Below, piece by piece: positions 1-22,708 of a stretch of DNA of 36,201 nt. This DNA comes from an uncultured Bacilli bacterium (GTDB lineage: Bacteria > Bacillota_I > Bacilli_A > RF39 > UBA660), in assembly GCA_944371545.1 (NCBI GenBank), contig CALVXT010000002.1, positions 1 to 36,201 of the forward strand. The letters run 5' to 3'. A model generated the notes under the pieces. That model was not told where the DNA came from, made no database searches, and worked only from the letters and a program-made list of their open reading frames with translations. The position numbers and the translations under genes were made by a program. How positions within the stretch are numbered: position 1 is the stretch's first letter; the number at the start of each line of letters is the position of its first letter.

Positions 1-1965
1 TTAACTCTTCAAAATTTAAAAAAAACATGCAAAAACTATCTAATATATATAATCTCTATTACTTTATCATTTTCCTTAATGTTTTCATTTAACCTAATAG
101 CCAATGCCAAAGACGTTATCGATTTATCTACTACTATGGAAAATTTTAAAGCGACCATGATCCTTGTTAATTGTATTATCTTATTCGTTCTAAGCTATTT
201 AATTAACTACACCATTAAATTTATGTTTCAAAAAAGAAGCAAAGAATTTGGAACCTATATGCTTCTTGGAATCGAAAAAAGACAAATAAGCAAGATGTTT
301 CTTTTAGAAAACTTACTAATGGGAATTATTGCCTTACTATTTTCCTTTTTCATCGGCTATATCTTTAGTCAAATTCTAAGTTTTATCATAATGAATATTT
401 TTGAACGCCCTTATAAAGTCATCTTAGCAAATGATCTAGGAATTCCCATTTTATATTCTATTATCTACTTTGCTATAATTTATTTTATTGTTCTTTTTTT
501 AACTCATCGTCGAATCAAAAAAACAACTATTCACAATCTTTTAAATTTAGAAAAGAAAAATGAAGAGAAAAAGACCCAAAAAAGAAAACATGGAACTTTA
601 AAATTTTTCTTATTTTTACTTTTAGGAATCATCTCTTTACTGATGATAAATCACGAGTTTATTGGCATTGGTATCGAACCATCTTTTGGAAAAATTGTCC
701 TAGCTTCCCTACTTCTTATCATTAGCATTTATGGAATAACATTTAACTTAGGCGATACTTTAATAAACTTTGTTTTAAAAAAGAATAAACGCAAATACAA
801 AAAAAATCATCTATTTATTGTCAGACAATTTACTTCAAAAATAAAAACTATGTCATTTACTCTATCAACTTTATCCTTATTAATTCTTTTAACATTTTTA
901 TCATTAAGTATTTCTAATTTAATGAATGCAATCCTAGAACATCAAATTGAAATGGTCGCACCTATGGATATTACAATTATTGATGATGAAGAAAATTTTT
1001 CAAAATATCTAGATGTCATTCACAAAAACTATACCATAGAAGAACAATTCATTTATCATAGTTATAATAATGATAACGATTCTATTTTTGATAAATTATC
1101 TGAAGAAGAAAAAAGTTGGAATGAAGACGATACAGTAATTCGATTAAGTGATTATAATAAATTAATGCAAATGCGTGGTAAAGAACCAATTAGTTTAGCT
1201 TCTAATGAATATGCCATAAATGTATCAACTGAGATGGAACAAGTTCTTTCTAATAAAAAAGAAGAAATTCGTAACATTACTTTACCAAATGAAGAAAAAC
1301 TAGAACTTAAAAATATATTTACAGAAAACTATTCTAGCATGTATTCACTAGGCTCAGGTTATCTCGTAATCGTACCAGATGAAAAAATCTACAATTTAGA
1401 AATAGAAGGTAGTTATTTAATTATAAATACCGTAGAAGAAACAAATGAGTTATTAGAAGATGAACTGATTAAAGCTGTGAATAACGAATTATGTGAAGAA
1501 GATGAAAATGGATATACATACTGCTATTCCGTTGCCAACATCTCTGTTAAAGGAAGCTATGAAAGTATGAATAAATCCACGACAACAATATTAAGTTTTG
1601 CATTATTTTACCTAGCATTTATTTTTACAACAGTAACAGGTGCTATTCTAGCAATTCAAACATTAAATGACGCGGAAAAATATAGATATCGTTTCCAAGT
1701 CTTATCAAAACTTGGAATGGAAGAAAAAGAACTCCATAAAAGTATATTTACAGAAACAAGTATTTTCTTTATCTTCCCAATTATTTATCCATTAATCACA
1801 AGTTTTATAATTAACTGTATCTTAAACAAACTGTTTAAACTTTTCTTACCAAGTAGTCATGCTTTCATCTCTATCTATTTATCCGGAATAAGTATTTTCT
1901 TAATTATTTATCTCATATATTATCTAGCTACCTATTTTGGAATCAAAAGAAACATAGAAGACTAG
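1..1965 (+). CDS. BceB-type (FtsX-family) ABC transporter permease; 5' end runs off the window
   Basis: Frame 1 is open from nt 1. LTLQNLKKTCKNYLIYIISITLSFSL precedes the first Met at 79 and looks like the usual N-terminus of this family. There are many TM segments and a large hydrophilic loop (roughly aa 290-510) between TM blocks. It is followed directly by an OmpR-type regulator and a small sensor kinase, which is the Bce-like layout. The ATPase partner would lie upstream of the window. Confidence 0.75.
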   Translation, partial: LTLQNLKKTCKNYLIYIISITLSFSLMFSFNLIANAKDVIDLSTTMENFKATMILVNCIILFVLSYLINYTIKFMFQKRSKEFGTYMLLGIEKRQISKMFLLENLLMGIIALLFSFFIGYIFSQILSFIIMNIFERPYKVILANDLGIPILYSIIYFAIIYFIVLFLTHRRIKKTTIHNLLNLEKKNEEKKTQKRKHGTLKFFLFLLLGIISLLMINHEFIGIGIEPSFGKIVLASLLLIISIYGITFNLGDTLINFVLKKNKRKYKKNHLFIVRQFTSKIKTMSFTLSTLSLLILLTFLSLSISNLMNAILEHQIEMVAPMDITIIDDEENFSKYLDVIHKNYTIEEQFIYHSYNNDNDSIFDKLSEEEKSWNEDDTVIRLSDYNKLMQMRGKEPISLASNEYAINVSTEMEQVLSNKKEEIRNITLPNEEKLELKNIFTENYSSMYSLGSGYLVIVPDEKIYNLEIEGSYLIINTVEETNELLEDELIKAVNNELCEEDENGYTYCYSVANISVKGSYESMNKSTTTILSFALFYLAFIFTTVTGAILAIQTLNDAEKYRYRFQVLSKLGMEEKELHKSIFTETSIFFIFPIIYPLITSFIINCILNKLFKLFLPSSHAFISIYLSGISIFLIIYLIYYLATYFGIKRNIED

Positions 1966-2671: not shown

Positions 2672-3656
2672 ATATCTTTGAATTTTTAGAAAGTAAAATT
2701 ACAAATATTTTATATCATTGTACTTTTTTTCTTATTTTATATATTTTTTTTAGATTATGTAAAATTCCCTTAAATATCATTTTTTTAATCATGATTGCTA
2801 TTATTTTTTCATACATATTCACTTTATGGATAGAATATTTTTGTTTAAAAAGAAAGGCTCAAAAAATAATAAATCAAGTCGATGCCTTACAAGAAAAATA
2901 TTTAATTACTGAACTGTTAAAGAAACCAAAAAATTTAGAAAATCAAGCATATTACTATGCCCTTTTAAAAGCTACGAAAGCTATGAATGATAAAATAAGT
3001 GAACTAGAAAGTTCTAAAAAAGAATATGAAGAATATATAGAATCATTTGTTCATGAAATAAAAACACCTCTTGCCGCTATGTTATTAACAATTGACAATC
3101 AAAAAAATAAAGATTTGAAACCAGAAATAGATAAAATTGATGAGTTAACTGAACAAATTCTTTATTATGCAAGAAGTCAAAATCCTGAAAAAGACTATTT
3201 TATAAAAAAAGTACATTTAGAAGACGTTATTCATTCTTTAATTTTAAAAAATCAATTTTATTTACTTCAAAATAAAATTCAAGTTCATGTCTATAATGTA
3301 AAAACAGAAGTATACACAGATGAGAAATGGTTAAGCTTTATTCTCTCGCAAATTTTAAGTAATGCCATAAAATACAAAAAAATGAACACAGTCAAATCAA
3401 AATTTATACAACCAAAAATGAAAAAAATCTCAACTTAATCATTGAAGATAATGGAATTGGTATTAAAGAAAGTGAATTTCCCAGAGTATTTGAAAAAGGT
3501 TTCACTGGGAGTAATCGAACAAAAAAATATGCCACAGGTATGGGATTATATTTAGCTAAAAAGTTATCAGAAAGCTTAAACATTCATTTAAAAATCGAAT
3601 CAAAATATCAAGAATTTACAAAAGTTATTCTAGAATTTTCTCTTCAAAAAAAATAA
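2668..3656 (+). pseudogene. BceS-like intramembrane-sensing histidine kinase, interrupted by a -1 frameshift in an A7 run
   Basis: The N-terminal ORF (2668-3438) has two TM segments and an H-box (FVHEIKTPLAAM). It leaves the family pattern after NAIKYKK and stops at 3436-3438. A different frame continues with ...NEHSQIKIYTTKNEKNLNLIIEDNGIGIKESEFPRVFEKGFTGSNRTKKYATGMGLYLAKKL... (N, G1 and G2 ATP-binding boxes) to TAA at 3654-3656. One extra A in the A7 run at 3376-3382 would fuse both parts into a protein of about 329 aa. Confidence 0.8.
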
Positions 3657-3690
3657 TAACTTAACATATTATTTATGATATAATATAAAT

Positions 3691-3798
3691 GTCAAAGATA
3701 TTGACATAAAAAAGGGAATACTTAACATTCGCTGGTTGAGTACTCACCTTAAGGTTGATAAGTACTTAATTCATCACGAATTGAGTACTATTTTTTTA
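3691..3798 (+). ncRNA. Candidate antitoxin sRNA, copy 1 (ends approximate)
   Basis: Extended -10 TGaTATAAT at 3676-3684. A 5' hairpin gtcaa-agata-ttgac follows. An intrinsic terminator has stem agtacttaattc (3761-3772) / gaattgagtact (3778-3789) with loop atcac, then T7 at 3791-3797. There is no ORF. It is convergent with the 3' end of the minus-strand peptide gene and overlaps it. Confidence 0.5.
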
Positions 3799-3877
3799 TT
3801 AAAATTATCAATAAAGATAAAATCAATAACAGATTAGTTAAGAGTAAAAAGGTGATTAGTAAATCCTTTTTCTTCAT
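3788..3877 (-). CDS. 29-aa hydrophobic peptide MKKKDLLITFLLLTNLLLILSLLIILIKK, type I toxin-like, copy 1
   Basis: Hand translation gives ATG at 3877 and TAG at 3790-3788. SD gaaaggag lies upstream. Putative sigma-A promoter on the minus strand: TTGCAA (3962-3967), 17-nt spacer, TATATT (3939-3944). The peptide is a single TM helix flanked by Lys residues. It was missed by the ORF track because of its size. Confidence 0.55.
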   Translation of the reverse strand: MKKKDLLITFLLLTNLLLILSLLIILIKK

Positions 3878-4016
3878 AACTTCTCTTCTCCTTTCAAAAA
3901 GAAGATAAGTACTCATGTGTAAATATTCCCTCAAACAAAATATAACATATACCTTCTATAATTGCAAATAGCAAAAAAATAGAATAAAAACAAAGAATTT
4001 ATGGTATAATGAAATT

Positions 4017-4127
4017 GTCAAAAGAAATGACATAAAAAAGGGAATACTTAACATTCGCTGGTTGAGTACTCACCTTATATTTTAAGTGAAGTACTTAATT
4101 CATCACGAATTGAGTACTATTTTTTTA
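4017..4127 (+). ncRNA. Candidate antitoxin sRNA, copy 2 (ends approximate)
   Basis: Extended -10 TGgTATAAT at 4002-4010. The terminator is identical to copy 1: stem 4090-4101 / 4107-4118, then T7 at 4120-4126. Same architecture as copy 1. Confidence 0.5.
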
Positions 4128-4206
4128 TTAAAATTATCAATAAAGATAAAATCAATAACAGATTAGTTAAGAGTAAAAAGGTGATTAGTAAATCCTTTTT
4201 CTTCAT
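4117..4206 (-). CDS. 29-aa hydrophobic peptide, type I toxin-like, copy 2 (coding sequence identical to copy 1)
   Basis: ATG at 4206, TAG at 4119-4117. Minus-strand promoter: TTGAAA (4292-4297), 17-nt spacer, TATATT (4269-4274). Confidence 0.55.
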   Translation of the reverse strand: MKKKDLLITFLLLTNLLLILSLLIILIKK

Positions 4207-4317
4207 AACTTCTCTTCTCCTTTCAAAAAGAAGATAAGTACTCATGTGCTAAATATTCCCTTAAGCCAAATATAACATAAACAAACTAGGTTTTCAAATT
4301 TATAGAAAGGACATAAT

Positions 4318-8079: not shown

Positions 8080-9318
8080 TTAATCTTCTCTTTCTAATGG
8101 CATACTCATACATCTAGGGCCACCACGTCCACGAGATAACTCTGCTCCGTGAAGCTCTAAAACAACAAGTCCCGCTTCTCTTAAAACTTGGTTAGTAACT
8201 TCATTACGGTCATAAACAACTACAACACCTGGTGCAATACATAAAGTATTTGAACCATCATTCCATTGTTCACGTTCACTACCAACTTTATCTCCTCCAG
8301 CACATGGAATTAAAGTAACAGGAACTCCTAAATAATGTTCCAAAATATTTCCTAAAGAATCATTAATTTCACGAACATTTAAATCTTCTTCACTACTTGG
8401 ATCATTGCCTTCAGTAATTTCAAAAACTTGTAAAGTATCTAAAATACCAGGATGATATGTAAAAATATTGCGATCAATTTGTGTAAATACTGTATCCAAA
8501 TGCATGAAAGCTCTTGAATTTGGAATATTAAAAGCTAAAACAGTATCAATTTTACATTTTTTATCTTTAAATAAATTCTTAGCAATTTGGTCAATTGCTT
8601 CAGCGCGTGTACGTTGAGAAATACCAATAGCTAAAGTATGTTCATTTAAATTTAAAATATCTCCACCTTCAATATGATAATCATAAGTACGATTATAATA
8701 TTTTGGAACATCTTTATATTCTGGATGATATGTAAAAATATACTCAGCATATATAGTTTCTCTATTTCTTGTAACGGAATACATTCTATTTAAAGAAATA
8801 CCATTTCCAATACTTGCAAAATTATCTCGAGTAAAATACAAATTTGGCATTGGGTCAGCTAAGAAATTTGTTTCATCAGTAACTAAATCAACTAAAGATT
8901 TTTCTGTTTCTCTTTTACGACGATTAATTTCTTTTACCTGAATTCCCTCCATGGTTTTTAAAACAAGTTCTTTTGTATCTTTAAAACTCATTAAATATTC
9001 AAAAACCAAATCTTTGTATTTTGGAGTACAAATACCAGCTTCTTCAATAAATTGTCTTAAGAATTTTTCTTTAATTTCTTGACTAATATTTAAAACATCA
9101 GTCATTAAATCTTCCAAGTAAACAACTTCAACGCCGTTACTTTTTAAAATTCTTGCAAATTCATCATGTTCATCTTGAGCATCCTTTAAATAAGGAATAT
9201 CATCAAAAAGTAAATCATGAAGAGTGTCCGGTGTCAAATTTAAAAGTTCATTACCTGGACGGTGTAATAAAACTTTTTTTAGTGGCTTAATTTCACTAGT
9301 TACATGAATAGCATTCAT
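8080..9318 (-). CDS. arcA: Arginine deiminase
   Basis: 412 aa. ADI-family length, with the C-terminal catalytic Cys block [12 protein letters not shown]. Confidence 0.9.
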
Positions 9319-9336
9319 TTATATCCCTCTTTCCTT

Positions 9337-10053
9337 CTAATGTTTTATTTTTCCCAAAAAAACTTTCAACCGCTCCGACTTCGGATGATTGAAAATTTCT
9401 AAAGGAGTTCCCTCTTCTAAAATTTTTCCTTCATCCATAAAAATCACTCGGGTTGCAAATTCTTTAGCAAAATTTAATTCATGAGTTACAACAACCATCG
9501 TCATTCCCTCTCTTGCAACATCCATCATCAAATTTAAAACTTCATCTATCATCTCCGCATCTAAAGCACTAGTCGGTTCATCAAACAAAATGATATCTGG
9601 ATGCATCATTAATGTTCTAATAATCGCGACTCGTTGCCTCTGTCCTCCAGATAAAGAGGAAGGATAAACCTCACTTTTATCTTCGAGATGAATTTGACTT
9701 AAATATTTTTTAGCATTTTCATTAATAGTTTTCTCATCTTCTATTTTTCTTGATAATGGAGCAATCGTTATATTTTCCCAAACAGTTAAATTTTCAAATA
9801 AATTGAAACTTTGAAAAACCATTCCTACTTTATGTCTCATTCGTTTAAATTCATTTTTAGTAATATCTTTATCTTCAAAAAAAATCTTACCTTGAAAACT
9901 TTCTAACCCATTTAAACATCTTAAGAATGTAGATTTTCCACTACCACTTGGACCAATAATAACAACTCTTTCTCCTTTAGAAATTTCTAAAGAGATATTT
10001 TTCAAAATTTTATTTTTTCCAAAAGATTTAGATAATTTTTCTATTTTATACAT
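9337..10053 (-). CDS. Polar amino-acid ABC transporter ATP-binding protein
   Basis: Walker [10 protein letters not shown], signature LSGGQRQR, Walker [12 protein letters not shown]. The start overlaps the end of the permease gene. Confidence 0.9.
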
Positions 10054-10756: not shown

Positions 10757-11485
10757 TTATTCTGTATATTGTAAAATATACTCCTCAATTTTTCCTTCGT
10801 TCATCAATCTTGTTAATACTTCATTAATTTGATTCAATAATTCTGTATTCCCTTTTTTGACAACCATTCCATATTTATCGGAAAATAAAATACCATCCAT
10901 AATTTTTAATTCTGGATTAGATTGAACAAGTTCTTTAGCAGGAAGTTCATCCATAACAATACAATCTGCTTTTCCACTTTTTACATCTTCTGCTGCTGCC
11001 AAATATTTTTTTTGAGAAACAATAGTAGCATTTGGATAATTTTCTTCTACATATCCTTCACCAACGGTTCCTAATTGAACAGCGATTTTTTTATCTCCTA
11101 ACTCATCAAAACTTTGAATGGAACTATCATTTCTTACAACAACAACTTGATTAGATACTGTGTATTCAATAGTAAAATCTACTTGTTCTTTTCTTTCATC
11201 AGTAATACTAATTCCTGCTGCTCCAAAATCAGCCTTTCCACTCTGTACTTCATTAATAATAAAATCAAAAGCAACATCTTTAACTTCTAATTCTTTTCCT
11301 AAAGCTTTTGCAATCTCCTTAGCAATTTCAATATCTACTCCAACAACTTCACCGTTTTCATAAAACTCATATGGAGCAAAACCTGCTTCAGTTGCCATGA
11401 TTAGTTTTTGGTCACGATCACTACCACAGCCTCCAAAAATTAAAATAGAAATAATTAGAAGAAGACTATATAAAACTTTTTTCAT
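10757..11485 (-). CDS. Amino-acid ABC transporter substrate-binding lipoprotein
   Basis: Signal peptide with lipobox (ILIFGGC). Family-3 SBP-like sequence (ATEAGFAPYEF...). First gene of the operon. Confidence 0.85.
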   Translation of the reverse strand: MKKVLYSLLLIISILIFGGCGSDRDQKLIMATEAGFAPYEFYENGEVVGVDIEIAKEIAKALGKELEVKDVAFDFIINEVQSGKADFGAAGISITDERKEQVDFTIEYTVSNQVVVVRNDSSIQSFDELGDKKIAVQLGTVGEGYVEENYPNATIVSQKKYLAAAEDVKSGKADCIVMDELPAKELVQSNPELKIMDGILFSDKYGMVVKKGNTELLNQINEVLTRLMNEGKIEEYILQYTE

Positions 11486-11540: not shown

Positions 11541-11783
11541 TCCATAAAGAACAAATTGTAAAATCATTTGTAAAACCAAAGCTTCTAATCTTTTTATAGT
11601 AATAGTATCTAAACTATCTTTTATATAAATATTATTATTATTCTCAAAGATAAGTAAAATTAAACACGATGTATTATTACTAATAATGAATAATTTTGTA
11701 AAGTTCATGAATAAAAAGGTTAGTTTTATCAAAAATTCTAACTGTTCTATGTTTATTTTCATTTAAGTAAAACTTTCAAGCAT

Positions 11784-11814
11784 AAAAAATCCCATATCAA
11801 TAAGTGATATAGGA
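11784..11814 (-). terminator. Intrinsic terminator (minus strand)
   Basis: 10-bp stem with one mismatch (tcccatatca / tgatatagga), loop ataag, then T6 on the minus strand. Confidence 0.6.
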
Positions 11815-11821
11815 TATTTAA

Positions 11822-11848
11822 TAAAATAAAACTCACACGAGGTGTGAG
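11822..11848 (-). terminator. Intrinsic terminator (minus strand), probably the displaced original tRNA-Gly terminator
   Basis: Stem ctcacac / gtgtgag with a 3-nt loop, followed on the minus strand by TTTTATTTT. It starts 9 nt after the tRNA-3'-end-like repeat at 11857-11866. Confidence 0.5.
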
Positions 11849-12002
11849 TAATTCTCTCAATGGAGCGGTTGTCGTAGGTATCTACAACTTTTTCACTTTT
11901 AACGATTTGATATATAAAATATCAATCATTAACGATATTTTAGCATATTTTTTTAAATGGAAGCAAATTTAACGTAACTATATAGAAAGATTTAGTAAAT
12001 AA

Positions 12003-12040
12003 TGCTATAATATAGGGGAAATTTTACCAATTGTTGGTAA
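12003..12040 (+). promoter_or_regulatory. Putative promoter plus perfect palindrome upstream of the OLD-like gene
   Basis: Extended -10 TGcTATAAT at 12003-12011. Inverted repeat TTACCAA-ttg-TTGGTAA at 12024-12040, in the predicted leader or operator position. Confidence 0.4.
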
Positions 12041-12069
12041 ATATGGTAATAGTAGTAGGAGGGTTTAAT

Positions 12070-13896
12070 ATGCAGTATAGTAAGTTTACTATTAAAAATT
12101 ATAGAGCAATTAAGGGACCATTAAAAATCGATTTAAAAAATAAAATTGTACCTTTGGTAGGTATCAATGAGTGTGGTAAAACAACTATTTTACAAGCTAT
12201 TTTTGCTTTTGATATTGCTAATGATAATTTAAATAAATCTAAGCAAATTCAAAATATTGGAAATCTTTACGCTTTAGAGGATGATACTTGCGAAATTGAA
12301 GCTAGCATAAATATACATAAAGAAGAACTGATTAACATTATTGAAAATCTTATAACTGATAATAAAAATTCTAAGATTAAAAATGAAGCAAAGCAAGAAG
12401 AATTGGAGCAAACAAGTCAAGAATGGAAAACGTTTGATATACAAAATCAAAACATAATTCAAGAAAATGATATTTATGCAAAATTGATTCAAATACTTAA
12501 AGATAAAGTTAAAGAAGATGAATTTGAAATAAATATTACCAGATTATTAACTAATGATGAAAATACTTATTATTTATCATTTAAAAGCTTTAATAGAGTT
12601 GAAAATTTTGATCTTATAAGAAATAAATTAGCTACTGAAATAGTAACCAAATTGCCACCAATATTATATAGTGATGATTTTAATGATAGACCTGATGGAG
12701 AAGTCGAAATTACCGAAGAAGGTAATTTTACAGAATGGGAAAGAATATATTCAAGGGTATTTAACAATGCATTAAATAAAAAAGATTTTAGCATTTATTC
12801 ATTATTTGATGAAGATTCAAGAAGACGTAAGTCTACACTTTCAGATGTAAGTAAATATTTAAGTGATAACTTAACTGAAGCATGGTCAAGGTTTTCTAAC
12901 GAAAAAAAGAAGATAACTATTTCATTTGATTTGGATGAAAGAAAAAATAATGATGAAGTGAAAAGAGTGCTTCAAATAAATATAGTTGAAAATGTAAACG
13001 GACAAGAAAGAATATTTGGAGTGTCTGATAGAAGTAAAGGGTTTATTTGGTATTATAATTTTATAATGAAAATTCAATTTAACCCTAAACAAAATAGTAA
13101 TTGTAACACTGTATTTTTATTAGATGAACCTGGTTCTTATTTACATGAAACAGCTCAAAATGAATTATGTAAAAAGCTTGTAGAAATTTCAAAAGATGAG
13201 GGAGTAGTTATTTATTGTACACATTCTCCACAATTATTAAATCCGTTGTATATTCCTTTAAGTACAATTAATATTGTTTCAAAAGTTCAATCTAAAGTAA
13301 ATTGTGTTCCTATTTCTTCATATAAAACTCGTTCAACACAAACAACGGCTTTTCAGCCAATCTATGAAGCATTACAAATTCCAGAGTTCAAACTGATCAA
13401 CAATAATCAAAAAGTTGTTGCAGGTGAAGGAATATACGATAAATACGCAATTGAAATGTTTTGTGATTTACCTAATGATGTAATAGTATTTGGAAGCGCT
13501 AATGCTAAATCTTTGCATGATAACATACAATATTTTATAGCTTTTGCAATTAAATATATAGCAATTTGGGATAATGATCCAGAGGGTAATACACATTGCA
13601 AAAATGCAAAAAACAACTTCGGTGATATTGAAAGCAAAAATTTTTATACTTTGCCGAATTTACATAATAAATCAAAAGTGAGAATGGAAGAAATGTTTGA
13701 ACCAGAGGATATGAATATGATTAATGAGGTGATTGGATTGCCTAAAGATTCATCATATACATTAGCAATGAGTAATTTATACTATTCTGGTAATAAGAAG
13801 ATGTTACTAACGCAAATAAAATCACAACTTTCAAAAAAATGTAATGATAATTTTTCGAATTTAAGCTCTACTATAAAGCAACATTTTAATAAATAA
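12070..13896 (+). CDS. OLD-family nuclease (ABC-type ATPase head plus C-terminal TOPRIM)
   Basis: I prefer the start at ATG 12070 (RBS aggaggg 7 nt upstream) over the ORF-track start at 12031. Walker A GINECGKTT, a long charged/coiled insertion, Walker B VFLLDEPGSYLH, and VIYCTHSP. TOPRIM-like VVAGEG (Glu) and IAIWDNDPEG (DxD) about 50 aa apart. Confidence 0.75.
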   Translation: MQYSKFTIKNYRAIKGPLKIDLKNKIVPLVGINECGKTTILQAIFAFDIANDNLNKSKQIQNIGNLYALEDDTCEIEASINIHKEELINIIENLITDNKNSKIKNEAKQEELEQTSQEWKTFDIQNQNIIQENDIYAKLIQILKDKVKEDEFEINITRLLTNDENTYYLSFKSFNRVENFDLIRNKLATEIVTKLPPILYSDDFNDRPDGEVEITEEGNFTEWERIYSRVFNNALNKKDFSIYSLFDEDSRRRKSTLSDVSKYLSDNLTEAWSRFSNEKKKITISFDLDERKNNDEVKRVLQINIVENVNGQERIFGVSDRSKGFIWYYNFIMKIQFNPKQNSNCNTVFLLDEPGSYLHETAQNELCKKLVEISKDEGVVIYCTHSPQLLNPLYIPLSTINIVSKVQSKVNCVPISSYKTRSTQTTAFQPIYEALQIPEFKLINNNQKVVAGEGIYDKYAIEMFCDLPNDVIVFGSANAKSLHDNIQYFIAFAIKYIAIWDNDPEGNTHCKNAKNNFGDIESKNFYTLPNLHNKSKVRMEEMFEPEDMNMINEVIGLPKDSSYTLAMSNLYYSGNKKMLLTQIKSQLSKKCNDNFSNLSSTIKQHFNK

Positions 13897-13952
13897 AAGT
13901 TGAAATGAGTTTGAATTTATGCAATATTATAAGGCAATAAAGGGGAGATTAT

Positions 13953-14981
13953 ATGGACATGATGCAATATAAACCATGGAAAAGAAAAGAAGTTAATTCT
14001 TTAGTAAGCGAGTCTAATAAGAAATTACCTATATTAGACATTCAGTTAGGTGGAGCATGCAATCTTAGGTGTATTTACTGCGATACTCCCAAATATGGAT
14101 TGCCATGTTCTGTTGATCTTTCATCAATTGAAAAATTAATGAAAGATGGAAATATAAGATGGGTATATGTTTGTGGGCTTGGAGAACCAACAGCTCCTGC
14201 AAATTTAAGACATTTAAAACAAATATTACAATGGTGTAAACAAAGAAATATCGGATTGTCTATGTTTAGTAATATGTTAAATGTTGATAAAGAATTGTTA
14301 GATTATATTGATGATGGTACATTACATGTATTATTTAAATTAGATACTTTTGATAAATCTAAAATGGCTTATCTATATGGTCAAGATAAAGGCGATATAA
14401 TATTAAGAAATTATCAATCATTGAAAGAAGTTACGCATGCTGAAAATGGAGTTACTAACCTAGGTGCTTCAATTGTTCCGACTAGTGTAAACTACAATGA
14501 ATTACCAACTATTATAGATTATTGTATGACAAATGGTATTTTCCCTTTAATTGGCCAACTTAAAGATGCTGGTAGTTGTTCAAAAATATTTAAAGATTTA
14601 GAAGTTAAAGAAGAAGATTTAATTAAATTTAGAAAATATTTATCTCAGACATATGGGGTAAATTATGAAATGCCAACTTATCCTGCTACAATTTCGGGAA
14701 TACATGTAACTAATACAAATAATATAATTTTAGATAAAAGAACAGGGTTGTCTTGTCCTTGGTTCTGGTTAAATGAACCTCAGCTAGAAGTAATTGGCGA
14801 TATACAAAGTATGAATTATGATGAAATTGTTAATAAAATTTTAGAATATAGAGCATCTAAACTTGAAGATGTTGAAACCATGGAAAAACATGTTGAACTT
14901 TATCCATTTGGCGGATGTGGTGGAAATGCAAAACGATTATTAAGGACATATCTTGATATACAAAAAGGTAGAAAATTATAA
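13953..14981 (+). CDS. Radical SAM enzyme of unassigned subfamily
   Basis: RBS aggggag. CNLRCIYC (C36/C40/C43, CxxxCxxC) and a GLGEPT SAM-binding motif. Additional Cys at 209, 268 and 322 (FGGCGGN). It lies 56 nt downstream of the OLD-like gene on the same strand, with no visible terminator between. Confidence 0.75.
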   Translation: MDMMQYKPWKRKEVNSLVSESNKKLPILDIQLGGACNLRCIYCDTPKYGLPCSVDLSSIEKLMKDGNIRWVYVCGLGEPTAPANLRHLKQILQWCKQRNIGLSMFSNMLNVDKELLDYIDDGTLHVLFKLDTFDKSKMAYLYGQDKGDIILRNYQSLKEVTHAENGVTNLGASIVPTSVNYNELPTIIDYCMTNGIFPLIGQLKDAGSCSKIFKDLEVKEEDLIKFRKYLSQTYGVNYEMPTYPATISGIHVTNTNNIILDKRTGLSCPWFWLNEPQLEVIGDIQSMNYDEIVNKILEYRASKLEDVETMEKHVELYPFGGCGGNAKRLLRTYLDIQKGRKL

Positions 14982-15007
14982 ATTAAAAGATGATAAAAGA
15001 GCATAAT

Positions 15008-16380
15008 TTATCGCTCAATATCATCTTTTTCTATTTCTAGTTCTTTATGATTATTTAAATTGTTATTGCCTTGAAGTAGCCTAAAAGTATCATCATCTAA
15101 GGCTCCTTGAGTATATAATTCTTTAGCAAATTCCATATATTTTTCCTTCTCTTTATTTCTATAAATTCTATCCATGAGAAACTGAACTAGATTATAAAAT
15201 AAATTTTTAAAATGTTGAAGAGACTTTTTGAGAGAAATGTTTTCTTCTTGTAATTCTTTGATTTCATCATCTTTTTCTTTGATATTTTTAGTTAAAGTTT
15301 CAATTCTAAGATTATTGGCTTCATTATTTTCAGCTAGCATTTCAATTTTTTTACGGTTGGTAAGAAGTTCATTTTCGACTTCTTTTAAAGTAACGGATAA
15401 CTCTTGTATATTTTGATATTCAGCAATCGTTTTATCAACTAAATCAATAAAGACTAAGGTTTTATCTCTATTAACAACATCTATGACTAATTGATTTTTA
15501 ATTAAACCTTTTGATTTTAAATTTTCAAGCATTTCTCTAATTTTTGTAGTGCTATTCAATAGATTATCAGATTTTTCTTTAGCTCTATTTAAGTTATTTT
15601 GAAGGACTTCAATACTTTTCTTCATTTCCTCATAGTTTTCCATCTCCGATACATGATAATCCTGATTACGACCTTTTAATTTAGGTTTTAGTTTATCATT
15701 TAATAAGTATTCCTTATTGTAAGATTCTATACAAAGTGTTCTCAATTTATCTTGGAGGGTAATCAAGGATTGTTTGGTAATACATCCGATTTACCAACTT
15801 GTTTAGACATACCATTCTTATTTTTATATTTGATTGGAACACCGATTATATGAAGATGGAGAGAAGTTTCATCATAATGAATAATAGCACTTGCTATTTT
15901 AAAATTAGGAACAAGAGTTTCTAAATTTTTGACTTGTTCTTTAAATACATTAGTCATTTTCTTTTTATAATTTATATCTTTTGTATCCCAAAATTTTTTA
16001 TTTCCAAGTTCAATAATAATCTCACAAGCTAAATCACTTTTAGAATTATTACTAACATGAGAAAAGTAATCTTTTATTTTTCTATCTTCTCGGGATTGCC
16101 TATTATTATATTCAATTCTAGCTTCTTCAAACTCATCTTTATATAATTTTTTAACATCATTTACGATTGAATGAGTACCTCGAATAATTTCTATATCATA
16201 TTCTCTATCATCATATTTCCTACAATTATGATTATCACATTTTGATAGTCCAGCTGCATTTTGAATAGCATTATTACTTTTAGAAGTTGTACCACTTAAA
16301 TTAGATTTAGCACTTGCTTTACTACTATTTTTCTTATTTTTATCACTACCTAAATGAAAAGAATATGCTAATTCTATAAT
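15008..16380 (-). pseudogene. MobV/Pre-family relaxase, frameshifted and lacking an ATG start
   Basis: The N-terminal part (open from 16383 to TGA at 15763) carries the HxDE..H.H motif (IHYDETSLHLHIIGVP). The reading frame must switch within 15767-15795: ...MSKQVGKSDV, then ITKQSLITLQDKL.... The C-terminal ORF (15008-15766) is a coiled-coil typical of Pre/Mob tails. After the upstream TGA, only ATT (16380) or ATA (16377) is available as a start, 8 nt after GGAG. Confidence 0.7.
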
Positions 16381-16436
16381 TAATCACGCTCCTTTATTTT
16401 ATTGCTTTTTATAGTAATTAAAGCTATATTTTGGCT

Positions 16437-16472
16437 ATGACAAAATATTTAACCCCCTAGGCATTTTGTCAT
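16437..16472. promoter_or_regulatory. oriT-like inverted repeat upstream of the mob gene
   Basis: Perfect 10-bp inverted repeat atgacaaaat / attttgtcat separated by 16 nt, about 60 bp upstream of the relaxase 5' end. That is where MobV plasmids place oriT. A second small inverted repeat ctaaggc/gccttag sits at 16492-16507. Confidence 0.4.
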
Positions 16473-16547
16473 GCTAACAAAATGCAGGTGGCTAAGGCTC
16501 GCCTTAGAATCCGAAATTAACTATCGTTAATTTATAAATAGAAGAAA

Positions 16548-16838
16548 TTAGCTTAGCCTAATTTCTTCCTCATATTCGTATATCTCGTTTAATACTTTTT
16601 CATTAGCAGGTTTGACTTCAATAGGTGTAGGTTCTTTTCTAAAAGTTAGTGCATCTCTTTTATCAAGTATATATTTAAAAGCATTCTCTTCATCTATTTG
16701 ATAGAACTCATTTTTACTTATCTTTCTAATACTTCCATTAATAAATGTTGGAGTAGTTTTACAAAACTCACAAATAAATTCTAATCTTTGTTTTAGAGTT
16801 TTCTCAAAAGGCATCTCTTGCTTAATAATATTAATCAT
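16548..16838 (-). CDS. Hypothetical 96-aa protein (island-borne)
   Basis: The start is set to ATG 16838 (MINIIKQ..., RBS aggaagga). The longer ORF-track version (to 16973) runs into the tRNA-Gly gene. I recognise no family. Confidence 0.45.
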   Translation of the reverse strand: MINIIKQEMPFEKTLKQRLEFICEFCKTTPTFINGSIRKISKNEFYQIDEENAFKYILDKRDALTFRKEPTPIEVKPANEKVLNEIYEYEEEIRLS

Positions 16839-16945
16839 AAACACCATCCTTCCTTTAGGATGATTTCTTTGTAAACAACAAAAAAACCAATCTTTCGATT
16901 GATTTCTATATATCAATGTCCGAAAAGTTCGAACAGATTCGTCAA

Positions 16946-17019
16946 TGGAGCAGATGATGGGAATCGAACCCACGTGGTCAGCTTGGAAGGCTGAAGTTCT
17001 ACCATTAAACTACATCTGC
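16946..17019 (-). tRNA. tRNA-Gly (anticodon UCC), CCA encoded
   Basis: The reverse complement folds as a 74-nt cloverleaf: acceptor GCAGATG/CATCTGC, D arm GTTT..GAAC, anticodon arm TCAGC-CTTCCAA-GCTGA, T arm GTGGG-TTCGATT-CCCAT, then TCCA. Confidence 0.9.
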
Positions 17020-17123: not shown

Positions 17124-17199
17124 GCTGGATTAGCTCAGTTGGTAGAGCAACGCCCTCGTAACGCGTAGGTCGCAGGTTCGAGTCCTGTTTCCAGCACCA
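17124..17199 (+). tRNA. tRNA-Thr (anticodon CGU), CCA encoded
   Basis: 76-nt cloverleaf: GCTGGAT acceptor, GCTC-AGTTGGTA-GAGC D arm, anticodon loop CTCGTAA, T arm GCAGG-TTCGAGT-CCTGT, then ACCA. Two non-Watson-Crick pairs (7-66 T.T and 31-39 C.C). Confidence 0.8.
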
Positions 17200-17242: not shown

Positions 17243-18724
17243 TTATATATCATAAGATTTTCTGTTTTCTTGGAAATCATTAATAATTAAATGATTAATT
17301 GATAATAACATACAAGCAATGGATACAGCATTTTTTAACGCATAGCTTACTACTTCTAACGGTTCTATTACATTAGTATTGGAAGTACTTTCAAAGTTAT
17401 TTGTTTTTACATTATATAATATTTGAAAATTTTCTTGTTTGATTCTGGTTAAGATTTCTTCTTTTGAAAGGAAAGCATTTTCCAAAATTTGTTTTAAAGG
17501 CATACTTAAAGCTGTTTGGAGTATTTTTGCTCCTGTTGTTTTTGGTTTTATTTCTTCACTTATCTGGTAAAGACAAATTCCTCCCCCAGGCACTATTCCT
17601 TGTTTGGCTATTTCTAATGCACAAAGAGCATCTTCATAACGCATGATTTTTTCTCTCTTTTCAGTAGTGGTTGATGCTCCAACATAAATTGTAGCTAACC
17701 CATAATGAAGTTTAGCAATTCTTTCGGCTAAAATTTCTTTTTGATAGTCTTCATTACTTTGCTCATATCTTTTCTTTAACATATTTCTTCTTTTAAGAGT
17801 ATTTTGATTACTGTGAAAAGTCACTTTATTTTTAGTGATTTTTACTTTTGAAATTGTTTGATTTTCATCTAATAATGTCTCAATATCCTCAATGATTTCT
17901 TCTTCTATATTTTGATATTCAAACCACTCCACAAGAATAATTTGACATTGGCTTTGAATACTCATTTCTACTAAATTTTCTTTTACATTTTTACTATATC
18001 CTTTTGTTAATAAAAGTACAGTTTCTTGATATTCTATACAATTATTTACTAATAAACTTATTTGTTCTAAATTTTCGATTCTTTCATCTATAAAGAAAAC
18101 TTTGCAATTTTCTAATTCTATTTTTTCTTTTCGAAAAAAATATTCTTCTGGAATTTTGCATTCTAATGTATATCCGTTTATTTTTTCATATGTTGTATTT
18201 TCATCTTTACTTTCTTTTAAAAAGATACTTTCTTTGCTTTTTGTTTTTAAAAATACTTCCGTAGTTATTTCACCAATACTTTCATCATTCGCGGCTACTG
18301 TTGCAATTTTTTGAAAGTCTTTTTTTGTTGGATTTTTTTTGAAAGTTGCTAGTTTCTCTAATATTTCTTGTAAAGTCTCTTCTAATTCTACTTTTAAAAT
18401 TTTTCTATTTGTTACTTTTATTCCTTCTTTTAAAAGTGTTTCTAACAAAACAAGAGTTGTAGTAGTTCCATCCCCTACTACTTCATTTGTTTTTAATGAT
18501 GCTTCTTTAGCAATTTCTAGTATCGTTTCAACTACCATATCTTCACTCGTAATATTTTGAGCAATCGTTACGCCATCATTAGTAATAAAAGGTTCACGAT
18601 CTGATGTATTAATTAAAACATTGTTTCCTTTTGGACCTAATGAATCTTTAACCACTCCACATAAAAGTTCTATACTTTCTATCATTTTTTGTTCTAAAAA
18701 TTCTCCACTTATTACTTTTTTCAT
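17243..18724 (-). CDS. Divergent, short (493 aa) Cpn60/GroEL-family chaperonin-like ATPase
   Basis: Equatorial-domain motifs are retained: LGPKGNNVLI, ITNDGVTIA, VGDGTTTTLVL, EDALCALEIAKQGIVPGGG, VIEPLEVV. The middle (apical) region is shorter and not recognisably GroEL-like. There is no GGM tail and no adjacent groES. The start overlaps the upstream stop by 4 nt. Confidence 0.7.
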   Translation of the reverse strand: MKKVISGEFLEQKMIESIELLCGVVKDSLGPKGNNVLINTSDREPFITNDGVTIAQNITSEDMVVETILEIAKEASLKTNEVVGDGTTTTLVLLETLLKEGIKVTNRKILKVELEETLQEILEKLATFKKNPTKKDFQKIATVAANDESIGEITTEVFLKTKSKESIFLKESKDENTTYEKINGYTLECKIPEEYFFRKEKIELENCKVFFIDERIENLEQISLLVNNCIEYQETVLLLTKGYSKNVKENLVEMSIQSQCQIILVEWFEYQNIEEEIIEDIETLLDENQTISKVKITKNKVTFHSNQNTLKRRNMLKKRYEQSNEDYQKEILAERIAKLHYGLATIYVGASTTTEKREKIMRYEDALCALEIAKQGIVPGGGICLYQISEEIKPKTTGAKILQTALSMPLKQILENAFLSKEEILTRIKQENFQILYNVKTNNFESTSNTNVIEPLEVVSYALKNAVSIACMLLSINHLIINDFQENRKSYDI

Positions 18725-19467
18725 TGTTCATCTTCCATTTCTAAAATATTTTTTCTTTTTTTTTTTGTCATAAAGTTTTGTTGACATTTTTTATTTACTC
18801 TTTCTTTTATTGCAATGGTTTTAAAGAAAGATTTCCATAATTCTTCCATATTCTTTTCTTCAGTATTTTGTTTTAAATCTAACTCTATTTCTTTTCCTTC
18901 TAAAAAATAGCAATTTTTTTGATCATATAGACATAATATATCTCGTTTTTCATCTTTTATAATCCATCTTTCTTTTGGCAGTCTTTTCTTAAAATGATTT
19001 GCTAATATTCCTAAAATATTGTTGTCGGCTGTAAATTCCGCATAAAAAATGTGATTTTGTATTTCTTTAAATCTTAAAAAGCCTTTCCATTTATGTGCTT
19101 CTCTTGAAACTCGTTTAGAAATTGTTAATGCTGTGTTTACGCATTTTAAATTGCGCATATAAAGAACATTTTTTTGATATTTAAGACTATTTAATAGAAA
19201 ATAATAAATAATTAATTCTTTATCTTTTTCATTAGATAAAAACACATAATAAGAAATTTTTAATACTTCTTTAGAAATATATTTTTTTAATGTTAAAGTT
19301 TTGATGTTTATAACCGGTTTAAATGGTGGGCTTAATAAATTGTTTTCATATTGGGTTTCTTCAATGATTTGAAAAGGTTTTCTTTTTTCTTTAAAAAGCC
19401 AGGAAATCACCTTTAATAATTCTTCCCAAGTTCCATCATAGATATACGTAAAATTACTTTCCTTCAT
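18721..19467 (-). CDS. DUF4130 / TIGR03915-type 'probable DNA metabolism protein' (family names from memory)
   Basis: 248 aa with WKGFLRFKE ... FYAEFTADNNILGILANHFKKRLPKERWIIKDEKR, which is the pattern I associate with DUF4130. It overlaps the upstream rSAM gene by 14 nt. Confidence 0.6.
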   Translation of the reverse strand: MKESNFTYIYDGTWEELLKVISWLFKEKRKPFQIIEETQYENNLLSPPFKPVINIKTLTLKKYISKEVLKISYYVFLSNEKDKELIIYYFLLNSLKYQKNVLYMRNLKCVNTALTISKRVSREAHKWKGFLRFKEIQNHIFYAEFTADNNILGILANHFKKRLPKERWIIKDEKRDILCLYDQKNCYFLEGKEIELDLKQNTEEKNMEELWKSFFKTIAIKERVNKKCQQNFMTKKKRKNILEMEDEQ

Positions 19468-20674
19468 AGAACAAACTTAATTGTGTAACACTTTCTTTTT
19501 TTTCTTCTTTTTCTTCTAAAATCAAGTTGCTAGTGATGAAACTTTTTTGAAAACAAGAAATATTGGCAAAATACTTTCCGTCACATAATATGAAATATTT
19601 AGCTCTTTTCAGAGAAATGCCCATTTTTTTTAAATCAGAAAAATGAATTGTAAAAAAACGTCTTGATGAAATTATTTTTTTGGCTCCCGTTGGTCCAATC
19701 CCTGGAACTTTTACTAAATCATAATAAGATGCTTTGTTTATTTCTTTTGGAAATTCTTCTAAATGTCTTAATGCCCAGTCAGCTTTGGGATCTAGTAAAA
19801 CATTAAAATTTGGATTGTCTTTTTCTAATAAATCATCTACTTTAAAATTATAATATCTAAGCAACCAGTCGGCTTGATACAAACGGTTTTCTCTTTTTAA
19901 TGGGGGCATTTTGATGCTTGGTAGATTTTTATCTTTATTGACAGCAATATAGGCTGAATAAAAAACTCTTTTTAGTTGATAAGTTTGATAAAGATTACTA
20001 CTTTTTGACATAATATCTAAATCTGTTTCATTTGTGGCTCCGATTATCATTTGCGTACTTTGGCCTGCTGGAGTAAAGATTTTGCTTTTTTTCTTTTTAA
20101 CAAAACTCATAATTTCTGTTACTTTTGAAGTATTTTTGTCGGGCGCGAGTAAGGTTAAGCCATTTTCTGTAGGAAGTTCAATATTGGCACTTAATCTATC
20201 TACTAATAATCCTAATTTTTGAATTAAGTATTCACTGGCACCTGGAATTGCTTTCGCATGAATGTACCCATTGAAATGATATTTGTTTCGCAACAAAGAA
20301 ATTGTTTCAATCATTTTCTCCATAGTATAATCAGGGCTTTTTATGATTCCTGAAGATAAAAATAATCCTTCAATATAATTTCTTTTATAGAAATTTATAG
20401 TAATTGATGCGATTTCTTCTGGTGTAAAAATAGCACGCCTTACTTGATTGCTTTTGCGATTAATACAGTATTTGCAATCAAAAATACAACAATTTGTCAT
20501 CAAAATTTTTAATAAAGAGATGCATCTTCCGTCCGAGGAAAAAGAATGACAAATTCCAGAAATGGCTCCATTACCTATTCCATTTTTATTTTTTCTTGCA
20601 CTGCCACTTGAAGAACAAGAAACATCATATTTGGCACTATCGGCTAAAATTTCTAATTTTTCTTTTAAAGTCAT
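19454..20674 (-). CDS. Putative DNA modification/repair radical SAM protein (TIGR03916-like) with C-terminal helix-hairpin-helix
   Basis: CIFDCKYC (CxxxCxxC) and an HhH-like VPGIGPTGAKKIISSRR. The usual partner, DUF4130, is immediately downstream. Start is either ATG 20674 (MTLKEKLEIL) or the ORF-track GTG at 20683. Confidence 0.7.
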   Translation of the reverse strand: MTLKEKLEILADSAKYDVSCSSSGSARKNKNGIGNGAISGICHSFSSDGRCISLLKILMTNCCIFDCKYCINRKSNQVRRAIFTPEEIASITINFYKRNYIEGLFLSSGIIKSPDYTMEKMIETISLLRNKYHFNGYIHAKAIPGASEYLIQKLGLLVDRLSANIELPTENGLTLLAPDKNTSKVTEIMSFVKKKKSKIFTPAGQSTQMIIGATNETDLDIMSKSSNLYQTYQLKRVFYSAYIAVNKDKNLPSIKMPPLKRENRLYQADWLLRYYNFKVDDLLEKDNPNFNVLLDPKADWALRHLEEFPKEINKASYYDLVKVPGIGPTGAKKIISSRRFFTIHFSDLKKMGISLKRAKYFILCDGKYFANISCFQKSFITSNLILEEKEEKKESVTQLSLFYEGK

Positions 20675-20691
20675 AGGTATCACCGGACAAT

Positions 20692-21355: not shown

Positions 21356-22708
21356 TTATAAAAAATCTTTTAATTCTTGCCATGGATCTTGTCTATTTAA
21401 TCTTTTGATTGCTTCTTTCATTGTTATTTCATTTGGTTTTACTTTATCTAATTCACTCCATTTAATAGGCATGGAAACAGGAATATTTTTTCTTAAACGA
21501 ACTGAGTACGGAGCAACACTTGTGGCTTTTTCGGTATTTCGAACCCAATCAATAAAAATTTTGTTTCTTCTTTTCTTTTTACTCATATTACTCGTATATT
21601 TTTCAGGCCATTTTTTCTCCATTAGGTTAGCAATATTTTTTGCGAAATTTCGAAAATCATTCCAACTTTTCATCGGCAATGGAACCACTATATGATACCC
21701 TTTTCCTCCGCTTGTTTTTAAAAAAGCTGGTAATTTTAATTCATCTAAAATACTTTTTAAATCTTTTACTCCTTCACGAACTTTTTCTAGAGAAAGTTTT
21801 TCGTCTGGGTCTAAATCAAAAATCATTAAGTTTGGTTTTTTTATTTTAGGAACAGTACTTCCCCAAATATGAAATTCATAACTATTCATTTGAACTTCTG
21901 ATAAGATACCTTGTGTATCTTTAATATAATAGTAGTCTTCTTTTTTTCCTTTATCATTCGTTATTTTTATTTTTCCTAAATAGTTATCGATATTTTCAAA
22001 ATGTTTTTTATAAAATTTTGTTTTTTCTATACCTTGTGGACTTCTTATCGTGCTTATTAGTCTATTTTTTATATAAGGAAGCATACGTTCTGCTATTTTT
22101 TCATAATAAGAAAATATATCTTTTTTGGTAATTTTATTTTTTTTATCAATCATCTTTTCTGAATTTGTTAGGATGATTTTTCCAGCAATTTCTTCCATAG
22201 TTTTCCCACTTCGAATGCTCGTTGTAAAGTTTTTTATATCTTGAAATGGTTCTTCATCTTTTTCTTTAATCAAAAGCCAATTTTCTTCTTTAAATGGAAT
22301 TAATGTCCAATGTCCTTTTAATCTTTTCCCATGTAAAAGAAATTTTATGGGCTTTTTGAAAGAAACTGTTGAACTTATTGGTTCCCAGTATCCTTCATCC
22401 CAAATCATCACTGTACCTCCACCATATTCTCCTTTTGGAATAGTTCCTTCAAAATTTCGATAATTCAAAGGATGATCCTCTACTTTTACGGCTAATCGCC
22501 TATCTTTCGAATTATAAGAAGGTCCTTTTGGCACTGCCCAACTTTTTAAAACGCCATGCCATTCTAATCTTAAATCAAAGTGGTCTTTTCTTGCTAAGTG
22601 ATGTTGAACAACAAAATGAAGTTTTTTGGTACTTTTTTGTTTTTTTCCTATTGGTTCTTTTGTCTTTTTAAAATTTCTTTTTTTATTATATTTTTGTAAT
22701 TCACGCAT
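21356..22708 (-). CDS. LigD-type 3'-phosphoesterase + AEP polymerase/primase fusion (no ligase domain)
   Basis: N-terminal PE domain: KRNFKKTKEP, VVQHHLARKDHFDLRLEW, GTIPKGEYGGGTV. C-terminal LigD-Pol domain: MIFDLDPDE, KTSGGKGYHIVVPL, IFIDWVRN. Confidence 0.8.
   Translation of the reverse strand: MRELQKYNKKRNFKKTKEPIGKKQKSTKKLHFVVQHHLARKDHFDLRLEWHGVLKSWAVPKGPSYNSKDRRLAVKVEDHPLNYRNFEGTIPKGEYGGGTVMIWDEGYWEPISSTVSFKKPIKFLLHGKRLKGHWTLIPFKEENWLLIKEKDEEPFQDIKNFTTSIRSGKTMEEIAGKIILTNSEKMIDKKNKITKKDIFSYYEKIAERMLPYIKNRLISTIRSPQGIEKTKFYKKHFENIDNYLGKIKITNDKGKKEDYYYIKDTQGILSEVQMNSYEFHIWGSTVPKIKKPNLMIFDLDPDEKLSLEKVREGVKDLKSILDELKLPAFLKTSGGKGYHIVVPLPMKSWNDFRNFAKNIANLMEKKWPEKYTSNMSKKKRRNKIFIDWVRNTEKATSVAPYSVRLRKNIPVSMPIKWSELDKVKPNEITMKEAIKRLNRQDPWQELKDFL

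Follow-up and report, generated by a model that had tools for sequence, protein, structure and literature searches.

Remnant of a probable integrative mobilizable element behind tRNA-Gly in an uncultured Bacilli bacterium, and its relatives in gut bacteria whose serine recombinase apparently targets tRNA gene ends

Every integrative mobilizable element (IME) described at the 3' end of a tRNA gene in PMC5704250 has a tyrosine integrase, whereas site-specific IMEs with a serine recombinase insert within genes and disrupt them (PMC5704250). Large serine recombinases (LSRs) of phages are reported to integrate outside tRNA genes, and the same split between the two integrase classes is seen in mycobacterial prophages (PMC10654092). 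Tn4451 and Tn4453 of Clostridium perfringens and Clostridioides difficile are mobilizable transposons that carry the LSR TnpX, the MobV relaxase TnpZ and an origin of transfer (oriT) of the RS_A type (PMC5704250). Here we analysed a stretch of 36,201 nucleotides from an uncultured Bacilli bacterium (GenBank assembly GCA_944371545.1, contig CALVXT010000002.1, positions 1 to 36,201; hereafter the window, with a G+C content of about 27%), in which the segment 11867-16945, an island adjoining an intact tRNA-Gly gene, is very probably a decayed IME. As a decayed mobilizable element the island is nothing out of the ordinary; what is unusual is the apparent targeting of tRNA gene ends by the LSR of the family to which it belongs, in contrast to the common rule by which tRNA genes are the sites of tyrosine integrases and serine integrases go elsewhere.

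An initial annotation of the window, made from the sequence without database searches, had proposed that a 10-nt repeat derived from the tRNA-Gly 3' end bounds a 5.1-kb insertion. The 10-mer TCAATGGAGC was found on the plus strand in exactly two copies (attL and attR cores in Table 1), as the annotation had claimed, while 0.04 copies of an exact match were expected from shuffled sequences and two or more copies occurred in 0 of 100 shuffles. The exact-match test is the useful one here, since 39 of 100 shuffles gave at least two matches when one mismatch was allowed, which renders that version uninformative. In the copy next to the tRNA, TCAATGGAGC is complementary to GCTCCA followed by TTGA; the gene overlaps the repeat by GCTCCA only, its 6 terminal nt, and TTGA represents the 4 nt downstream of the gene. 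Beyond the distal copy, two terminator-like hairpins on the minus strand were predicted near the positions given in the initial annotation (11822-11848 and 11784-11814). These hairpins indeed lack a gene of their own, as no minus-strand gene ends near them and the nearest such gene upstream is 3 kb away. An Rfam search of the window returned two tRNAs only, the tRNA-Gly and a tRNA-Thr on the plus strand at 17124-17199, and revealed no leader RNA in the stretch that separates the terminators from the ABC transporter operon.

Other alleles of this site were found by looking up contigs encoding exactly the flanking solute-binding protein (10757-11485), and two metagenome contigs proved to hold an empty site. 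In the first, L008, the window segments 17757-16944 and 11866-9000 abut with an 8-nt overlap at 98% identity, the tRNA end reads ...CATCTGCTCCATTAAGATAATTACTCACATC..., and the first terminator stands at most 8 nt after CCA. The second, L113, belongs to a more distant relative (87–92% identity) and reads GCTCCATTGAGAGAATTACTCAC at the empty site (also given as GCTCCATTGAGAGAATTAC). In both contigs the tRNA CCA is followed by the same terminator within 8 nt. Because the terminators lie directly after the tRNA CCA in these two empty sites, they can be assigned to tRNA-Gly as its original terminators, now 5.1 kb from the gene. The search for an empty site in related genomes, which the initial annotation had suggested, was therefore positive, and both the insertion and its boundaries can be read from the alignments. 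None of the three outcomes that the annotation had named as contrary to an insertion, namely a different junction in relatives, a common 10-mer or an ancestral gene order, was found.

Among the other contigs, L002 is identical to the window and L004 stops at window 11867, that is, at the junction. Copies of the decayed island with 98–100% identity were present in five or more further samples, which belong to two studies, and the occupied L097 and the empty L008 share one sample, ERZ28614461. Two further contigs, L010 and L007, hold different elements at the same site, both of which share the distal P arm with the window island.

The contents that the initial annotation had listed between the repeats, i.e. 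an OLD-like gene, a radical SAM gene, a broken MobV relaxase gene, an oriT-like region and a 96-aa open reading frame (ORF), were all found, and comparison with relatives revealed how the last of these had arisen. Codons 1 to ~40 of the 96-aa ORF derive from a small ORF that lies upstream of the LSR gene in intact elements, and codons ~41–96 derive from the 3' end of the LSR gene. At the DNA level, window 16991-16720, which holds the tRNA end, the arm and codons 1 to ~40 of the small ORF, aligned to 9195-9470 of locus L065 (85% identity), and window 16717-16594 aligned to the final part of the LSR gene (L065 11526-11657), placing the deletion junction at ~16717-16720 with ~2055 bp missing relative to L065. 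At the protein level, aa 1–45 were 71% identical to the small ORF of locus L062 (E = 2e-23) and aa 35–92 were 43% identical to LSR aa 585–640 (E = 1e-6). The earlier statement that no integrase remains thus needs qualification, as the last ~56 LSR codons survive inside the 96-aa ORF. A database search with the 96-aa ORF gave the window's own sequence as the only full-length match and no diverged homologue with the chimeric layout; the other matches cover the N-terminal half only and represent the 91–94-aa small ORF of intact elements. With no other full-length match in the database, the ORF was rejected as a candidate conserved small protein, and the chimera appears to be a recent accident and not a gene family, because no diverged protein of that layout is present in the database.

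The relaxase gene is broken, as had been noted initially, yet by two frameshifts instead of a single one. Both were placed by DNA comparison with L062, L064 and L060: the first is a +1 shift caused by an extra A at 16380-16381, in codon 3 just past the GTG start (GTGATTAATTATAGAA versus GTGATTATTATAGAA), and the second is a −1 shift from TTT to TT at 15779-15780, around codon 203 (GTATTTAC to GTATTAC). When the intact Mob of L062 was used as a query in tblastn, the match was split over two frames, aa 2–204 and aa 202–456. The second frameshift is not due to an error in sequencing, since L093, a copy from an independent sample with 99.4% identity, aligns across it without a gap. The +1 and −1 shifts cancel each other, so that the GTG start and the C-terminal 252 codons are in one frame and the whole catalytic domain between the two shifts is out of frame; this cancelling is probably a coincidence.

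In the oriT-like region, the conserved core at 16418-16483, which includes the GCATTTTGT/ACAAAATGC hairpin, was 88–95% identical to the elements in L060–L068 and 84–94% identical in most other loci, compared with ~70% for the neighbouring mob gene. The island keeps an intact oriT beside a relaxase gene with two frameshifts; neither type IV secretion genes nor a replication gene were found in it, and it cannot move on its own.

Table 1. Features of the island and its target site in the window
Feature	Position	Strand	Basis or remark
tRNA-Gly(tcc), target gene, intact, CCA encoded	16946-17019	-	ARAGORN; Rfam RF00005, 70.6 bits
attL core	16942-16951	-	GCTCCA (16951-16946) = family-wide core; TTGA (16945-16942) starts the P' arm of the element
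P' arm, element end beside tRNA	16839-16945	-	TTGACGAATCTGTTCGAAC family-conserved; 85–88% identical to L060–L068
96-aa chimeric ORF	16548-16838	-	start of small ORF fused to LSR 3' end
oriT-like region, three hairpins	16400-16545	-	DNA fold −26 kcal/mol, z = −5.6
MobV (Mob_Pre) relaxase pseudogene	15008-16387	-	Pfam PF01076; GTG start 16387-16385
Radical SAM enzyme, 342 aa	13953-14981	+	PF04055
OLD/AriA/GajA-like ABC-type ATPase, 608 aa from ATG after AGGAGG site	12070-13896	+	PF13175 AAA_15, E = 7e-19
P arm, element end distal to tRNA	11867-11950	-	AAAAAGTTGTAGATACCTACGACAACC family-conserved; same arm before the chromosomal junction in more than 50 loci
attR core	11857-11866	-	GCTCCA (11866-11861) = the element's tRNA-end copy; TTGA (11860-11857) = native chromosome
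Two tandem intrinsic terminators (hairpin + T-run)	11849-11831 and 11815-11789	-	predicted terminator-like hairpins

The element in L010 encodes the C-terminal 558 aa of an LSR upstream of an intact 460-aa Mob_Pre protein, and this LSR fragment was used to scan one genome per species. The scan resulted in 328 relatives, and 80 loci were fetched; the sources of these 80 are uncultured Bacilli, 'Tenericutes' and Clostridia of the gut, among them Clostridium sp. CAG:524 (L062). None of these 80 loci shares the flanks of the window, the best being L047 from Candidatus Pelethosoma merdigallinarum (74%, arginine deiminase operon). By BLAST, the order of parts was constant: tRNA, P' arm, small ORF, LSR, oriT-like core, Mob_Pre, cargo and P arm, with a P' arm up to 88% identical to window 16945-16839 and a variable cargo of 0.9–5.7 kb. 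In intact elements the small ORF has 91–94 aa, the LSR 640 aa and Mob_Pre (PF01076) 461 aa, and the LSR of L062 (640 aa) contains a Resolvase, a Recombinase and a Zn-ribbon domain. Both end arms of the window island recur in more than 30 complete relatives, and these relatives, together with the empty sites, bear out the initial proposal that the element inserted site-specifically at the end of tRNA-Gly and then decayed. As for the properties that define an IME (PMC5704250), the island has a specific site and att boundaries with short direct repeats, as seen from the empty sites, the P and P' arms and GCTCCA; an integrase of its own is represented in the window by the last LSR codons only, and the relatives encode it in full.

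The small ORF of 91–94 aa (L062 9343-9627 and homologues P0124–P0240), located between the tRNA-proximal arm and the LSR, gave no Pfam or NCBIfam match and is a candidate directionality factor or regulator. Tandem elements, in which a P arm with CCA is followed at once by another P' arm, were observed in L013, L019, L026, L039, L043, L054 and L058 (for instance, L043 16970-17063 and L058 8029-8183). In the second unit of L058 the arm is directly followed by oriT, a decay more extreme than that of the window island. In L109 (JABLTK010000534.1, ~918-1050, minus strand) the same tRNA-Gly end precedes an arm that has diverged (GAGGAATCTGCTCGGAAC), suggesting that the family has one more sub-lineage. 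The family as a whole is large and apparently undescribed in gut bacteria, with a serine recombinase that seems to be aimed at tRNA gene ends; we found no description of such a family in the literature, of which our coverage was incomplete, so this is absence of evidence only.

The junctions of the relatives also allowed the recombination site to be narrowed down. In more than 50 loci GACGWWTCTGTTCGAAC follows the tRNA CCA after 1–3 nt, and the distal junction is preceded by AAAGTTGTAGATAnCTACGACAnnnGC[T/A]CCA (also given as GTTGTAGATAnCTACGACAnnnGC[T/A]CCA) and followed by unrelated chromosome, often with a terminator hairpin. Every element with its tRNA-proximal junction inside the fetched DNA sits right after the CCA of a tRNA gene, the targets including Gly(tcc), Gly(gcc), Leu(caa, tag, taa), Thr(ggt), Tyr, Gln and Phe, that is, at least seven kinds. 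The identity between attL and attR was 5–7 nt in 34 complete elements and ended at the A of CCA in 33 of the 34, and the identity beyond CCA was 0 nt in 26 of them. Regarding the 10-bp duplication of the initial annotation, therefore, GCTCCA is shared as claimed, while TTGA is a local coincidence, the family repeat being only 5–7 nt and ending at CCA. The native chromosome reads TTGAGAG after CCA in the empty site L113, and also in L068 and L021, and the arm of the element reads TTGACG, so the TTGA in the window repeat is a chance identity between the two. The repeat is a copy of the tRNA end, GCTCCA, that the element itself carries, and did not arise by duplication at insertion.

In L073 the tRNA ends with CCCACCA and attR reads GGGCACCA, and CACCA alone is common to both. 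Since mismatches of this type leave only CACCA shared, the crossover would lie within the last five nucleotides, most simply at CC or CA. When attP was reconstructed, both of its outer ends read AAAAGTT, ~55 bp apart, a size that fits the site of a large serine integrase.

From these observations we infer how the insertion proceeded. The LSR would recombine the ~55-bp attP with the 3' end of a tRNA gene; attP would carry its own copy of the last 5–7 nt of the tRNA, [G]C[T/A]CCA, and the crossover would occur inside this copied end, most simply in CCA. A crossover within the tRNA end would keep the tRNA intact and push the downstream DNA, here the two terminators, off by the length of the element. 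After insertion, as the alignments show, a deletion of ~2.05 kb eliminated the greater part of the small ORF and almost the whole LSR gene, so that the in-frame 96-aa chimera remained, and the relaxase gene gained its two frameshifts; the two intact att arms, the intact oriT, and the OLD-like ATPase and radical SAM cargo are still present. In intact elements, conjugative mobilization would proceed via Mob and oriT. More generally, and as a tentative proposal that is somewhat less likely than not, the natural attB of this LSR clade could be the CCA-bearing 3' end of tRNA genes, of which at least seven kinds are used, with an attP that mimics the tRNA end and a crossover in the last 5–6 nt. If so, the tRNA would always be restored, and the small mobilizable elements of the family might carry defence genes and be common across uncultured Bacilli, 'Tenericutes' and Clostridia of the gut.

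Several points weigh against this account of a decayed IME. Recombination is deduced from sequence alone, as no excision or integration was observed, and the junctions by themselves cannot fix the crossover dinucleotide. The intact elements compared were only ~70–88% identical to the window island, a direct ancestor with an intact LSR was not found, and no intact copy with the OLD and radical SAM cargo was found from the window's own species. The composition check that had been suggested initially gives no independent support either: the G+C of the island (0.25–0.29) is no different from that of the flanks and equals that of the host, which makes composition uninformative as a sign of foreign origin, and GC skew flips within the island because the two cargo genes lie on the other strand.

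Among other explanations, the one that survives best is that the island is a live cis-mobilizable satellite, like a cis-mobilizable element (CIME), excised and transferred with the help of a related element in its host cell that supplies LSR and relaxase. We regard this as unlikely, albeit worth serious consideration: attL, attR and oriT are intact, the two arms as well as the oriT core agree with the family consensus, a related element with intact LSR and Mob (L010) is found at this site in other strains of the species, tandem arrays are common in the family, and occupied and empty alleles occur together in one sample. However, no intact helper element was found in the window, the chimeric 96-aa layout occurs in no other lineage and shows no sign of maintenance by selection, and all copies are at one chromosomal site with a divergence about that of the flanks, which fits vertical inheritance.

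It is very improbable that the island is a classical tRNA island whose tyrosine integrase was later lost completely. Although tRNA 3' ends are the typical targets of such integrases (PMC5704250, PMC10654092), the shared core is only 5–7 nt, a 3' fragment of an LSR gene is still present in the window, and no integrase family was among the Pfam families listed for 101 cargo ORFs of 40 elements. In L062, the one element with a full list of ORFs from arm to arm, the LSR is the sole recombinase and there is no tyrosine recombinase. Integration of a small MobV plasmid through recombination by the relaxase (Pre) at oriT (RS_A) is hardly credible: Mob_Pre proteins were indeed first described as plasmid recombination enzymes (Pfam PF01076 description), but neither junction coincides with oriT, found intact ~460 bp within the element, a replication gene is lacking, and the junction arms are those of the LSR-bearing family. 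Finally, the idea that the gene order is ancestral and that L008 and L113 are deletions between chance repeats can practically be discarded, for a 10-bp repeat could in principle support deletion, but the same arms flank unrelated cargo at seven or more kinds of tRNA gene in dozens of genomes and L010 has a different element between the same flanks.

As for the cargo, 101 ORFs of 40 elements and the two cargo genes of the window were scanned with Pfam and PADLOC. The OLD-like ATPase of the window matched the PADLOC models AriA (1.4e-20), Old (1.1e-18) and ATPase-Toprim_I-B (5.7e-8, over aa 347–607) and, weakly, the OLD nuclease 6p74 in the PDB; its ATPase part is clear, whereas a possible C-terminal Toprim region is backed by that one PADLOC model only, with no Pfam Toprim match. 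It is likely a stand-alone defence gene. Homologues of the radical SAM enzyme (56–88% identity) are single chromosomal genes in housekeeping contexts without an OLD-like neighbour. Since these homologues stand alone in chromosomes and never beside an OLD-like gene, a two-gene defence system of OLD and radical SAM was rejected. The enzyme is 76–88% identical to single-copy-looking chromosomal genes of related Bacilli (L105, L107, L099, L100 and L102), which adjoin the tsaD/tsaE operon, tatD or a UDG gene, and the island gene seems to be a captured copy of this common chromosomal gene. In the relatives, the cargo includes C5 DNA methylases, R.HinP1I and Mrr-type endonucleases, AAA_15/OLD-like ATPases (3), TnpV (3), HTH and antitoxin proteins, NUDIX, Band_7 and, in L062, a caspase-like protein. 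The window cargo occupies the same slot, which is rich in restriction-modification, OLD/AAA_15 and toxin-antitoxin genes, and the window OLD-like gene is consistent with this cargo pattern.

Some further variation was observed outside the island. The contigs L001, L003, L005, L006 and L009 part from the window at 11548 into unrelated context, which constitutes a second structural polymorphism ~300 bp from the island: these five contigs encode an identical solute-binding protein, their similarity to the window ends at 11548 (9938 in L001 and 5213 in L003), and upstream of it they carry an unrelated block of arylsulfotransferase, HTH, SLFN/AlbA_2 and pheT, without the terminators or tRNA-Gly. 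A tandem duplication of ~330 bp (window 3647-3969 and 3973-4299, with 160 nt identical between the copies) sits in the gap between a 256-aa ORF and a DcuC-like gene; stretches matching it in L004 (7588-8225) and L007 lie just past a single DUF4186 gene (L004 7187-7552). On the tRNA side, a DUF4130 gene and a radical SAM/HHH gene adjoin a Cpn60-like gene (window 18721-20683), with a LigD primase-polymerase gene further on (~21356-22708); the region 18721-20683 is ordinary chromosomal context outside the island.

Insertion and decay of an IME explain the orphan terminators, the odd 96-aa ORF and the two plus-strand accessory genes amid a minus-strand run. The LSRs of the family are possible tools, namely candidates for site-specific integration into a target that is both short and universally conserved. 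The cargo slot holds restriction-modification, OLD-like, caspase-like and toxin-antitoxin genes, and with cargo of this defence type the family is probably a route of defence-gene exchange in bacteria not yet culturable.

Compared with known systems, the family resembles IMEs with a tyrosine integrase, such as NBU1 at tRNA-Leu and IME_Sag2603_tRNAlys, in that the tRNA 3' end is undisrupted, a relaxase and oriT are present, and tandems and decay occur (PMC5704250); it differs in its serine recombinase, its much shorter core and the small ORF followed by the LSR that adjoin the tRNA. As in CIMEs, compared here by sequence only, the island keeps attL, attR and oriT without a working integrase or relaxase, the LSR gene being deleted, the relaxase gene frameshifted, and the arms and oriT matching the consensus. 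Unlike CIMEs, it retains a recognisable LSR gene remnant and relaxase pseudogene. With Tn4451/Tn4453 the family shares a size of ~6 kb, a single LSR, MobV/Pre with oriT just upstream, cargo and the lack of pore genes (PMC5704250), and TnpV domains (PF14198) were present in the cargo of 3 surveyed relatives. The MobV of TnpZ type with oriT immediately upstream was recognised by matches to PF01076 and NF041497 and by the hairpin region. On the other hand, Tn4451 has low target specificity and a 2-bp (GA) crossover (PMC5704250), whereas the family inserts after the tRNA CCA with a 5–7-nt core; the catalytic domain of the family LSR gave a much stronger match to the TP901-1 integrase (E = 6e-21) than to TnpX (E = 9e-7); and among the PLSDB plasmids nothing exceeded 31% identity to the LSR or 40% to Mob, i.e. 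no close plasmid relative was found. Because of this target specificity, the TP901-1-like LSR and the low PLSDB identities, membership of the Tn4451/Tn4453 family is not supported. The LSRs of phages (TP901-1, Bxb1 and phiC31) are alike in their Resolvase, Recombinase and Zn ribbon domains, their attP of ~50 bp and their very short core, whereas the LSRs of the present family differ in that their attB would be the 3' end of several tRNAs and in a C-terminal extension of ~170 aa past the last Pfam domain.

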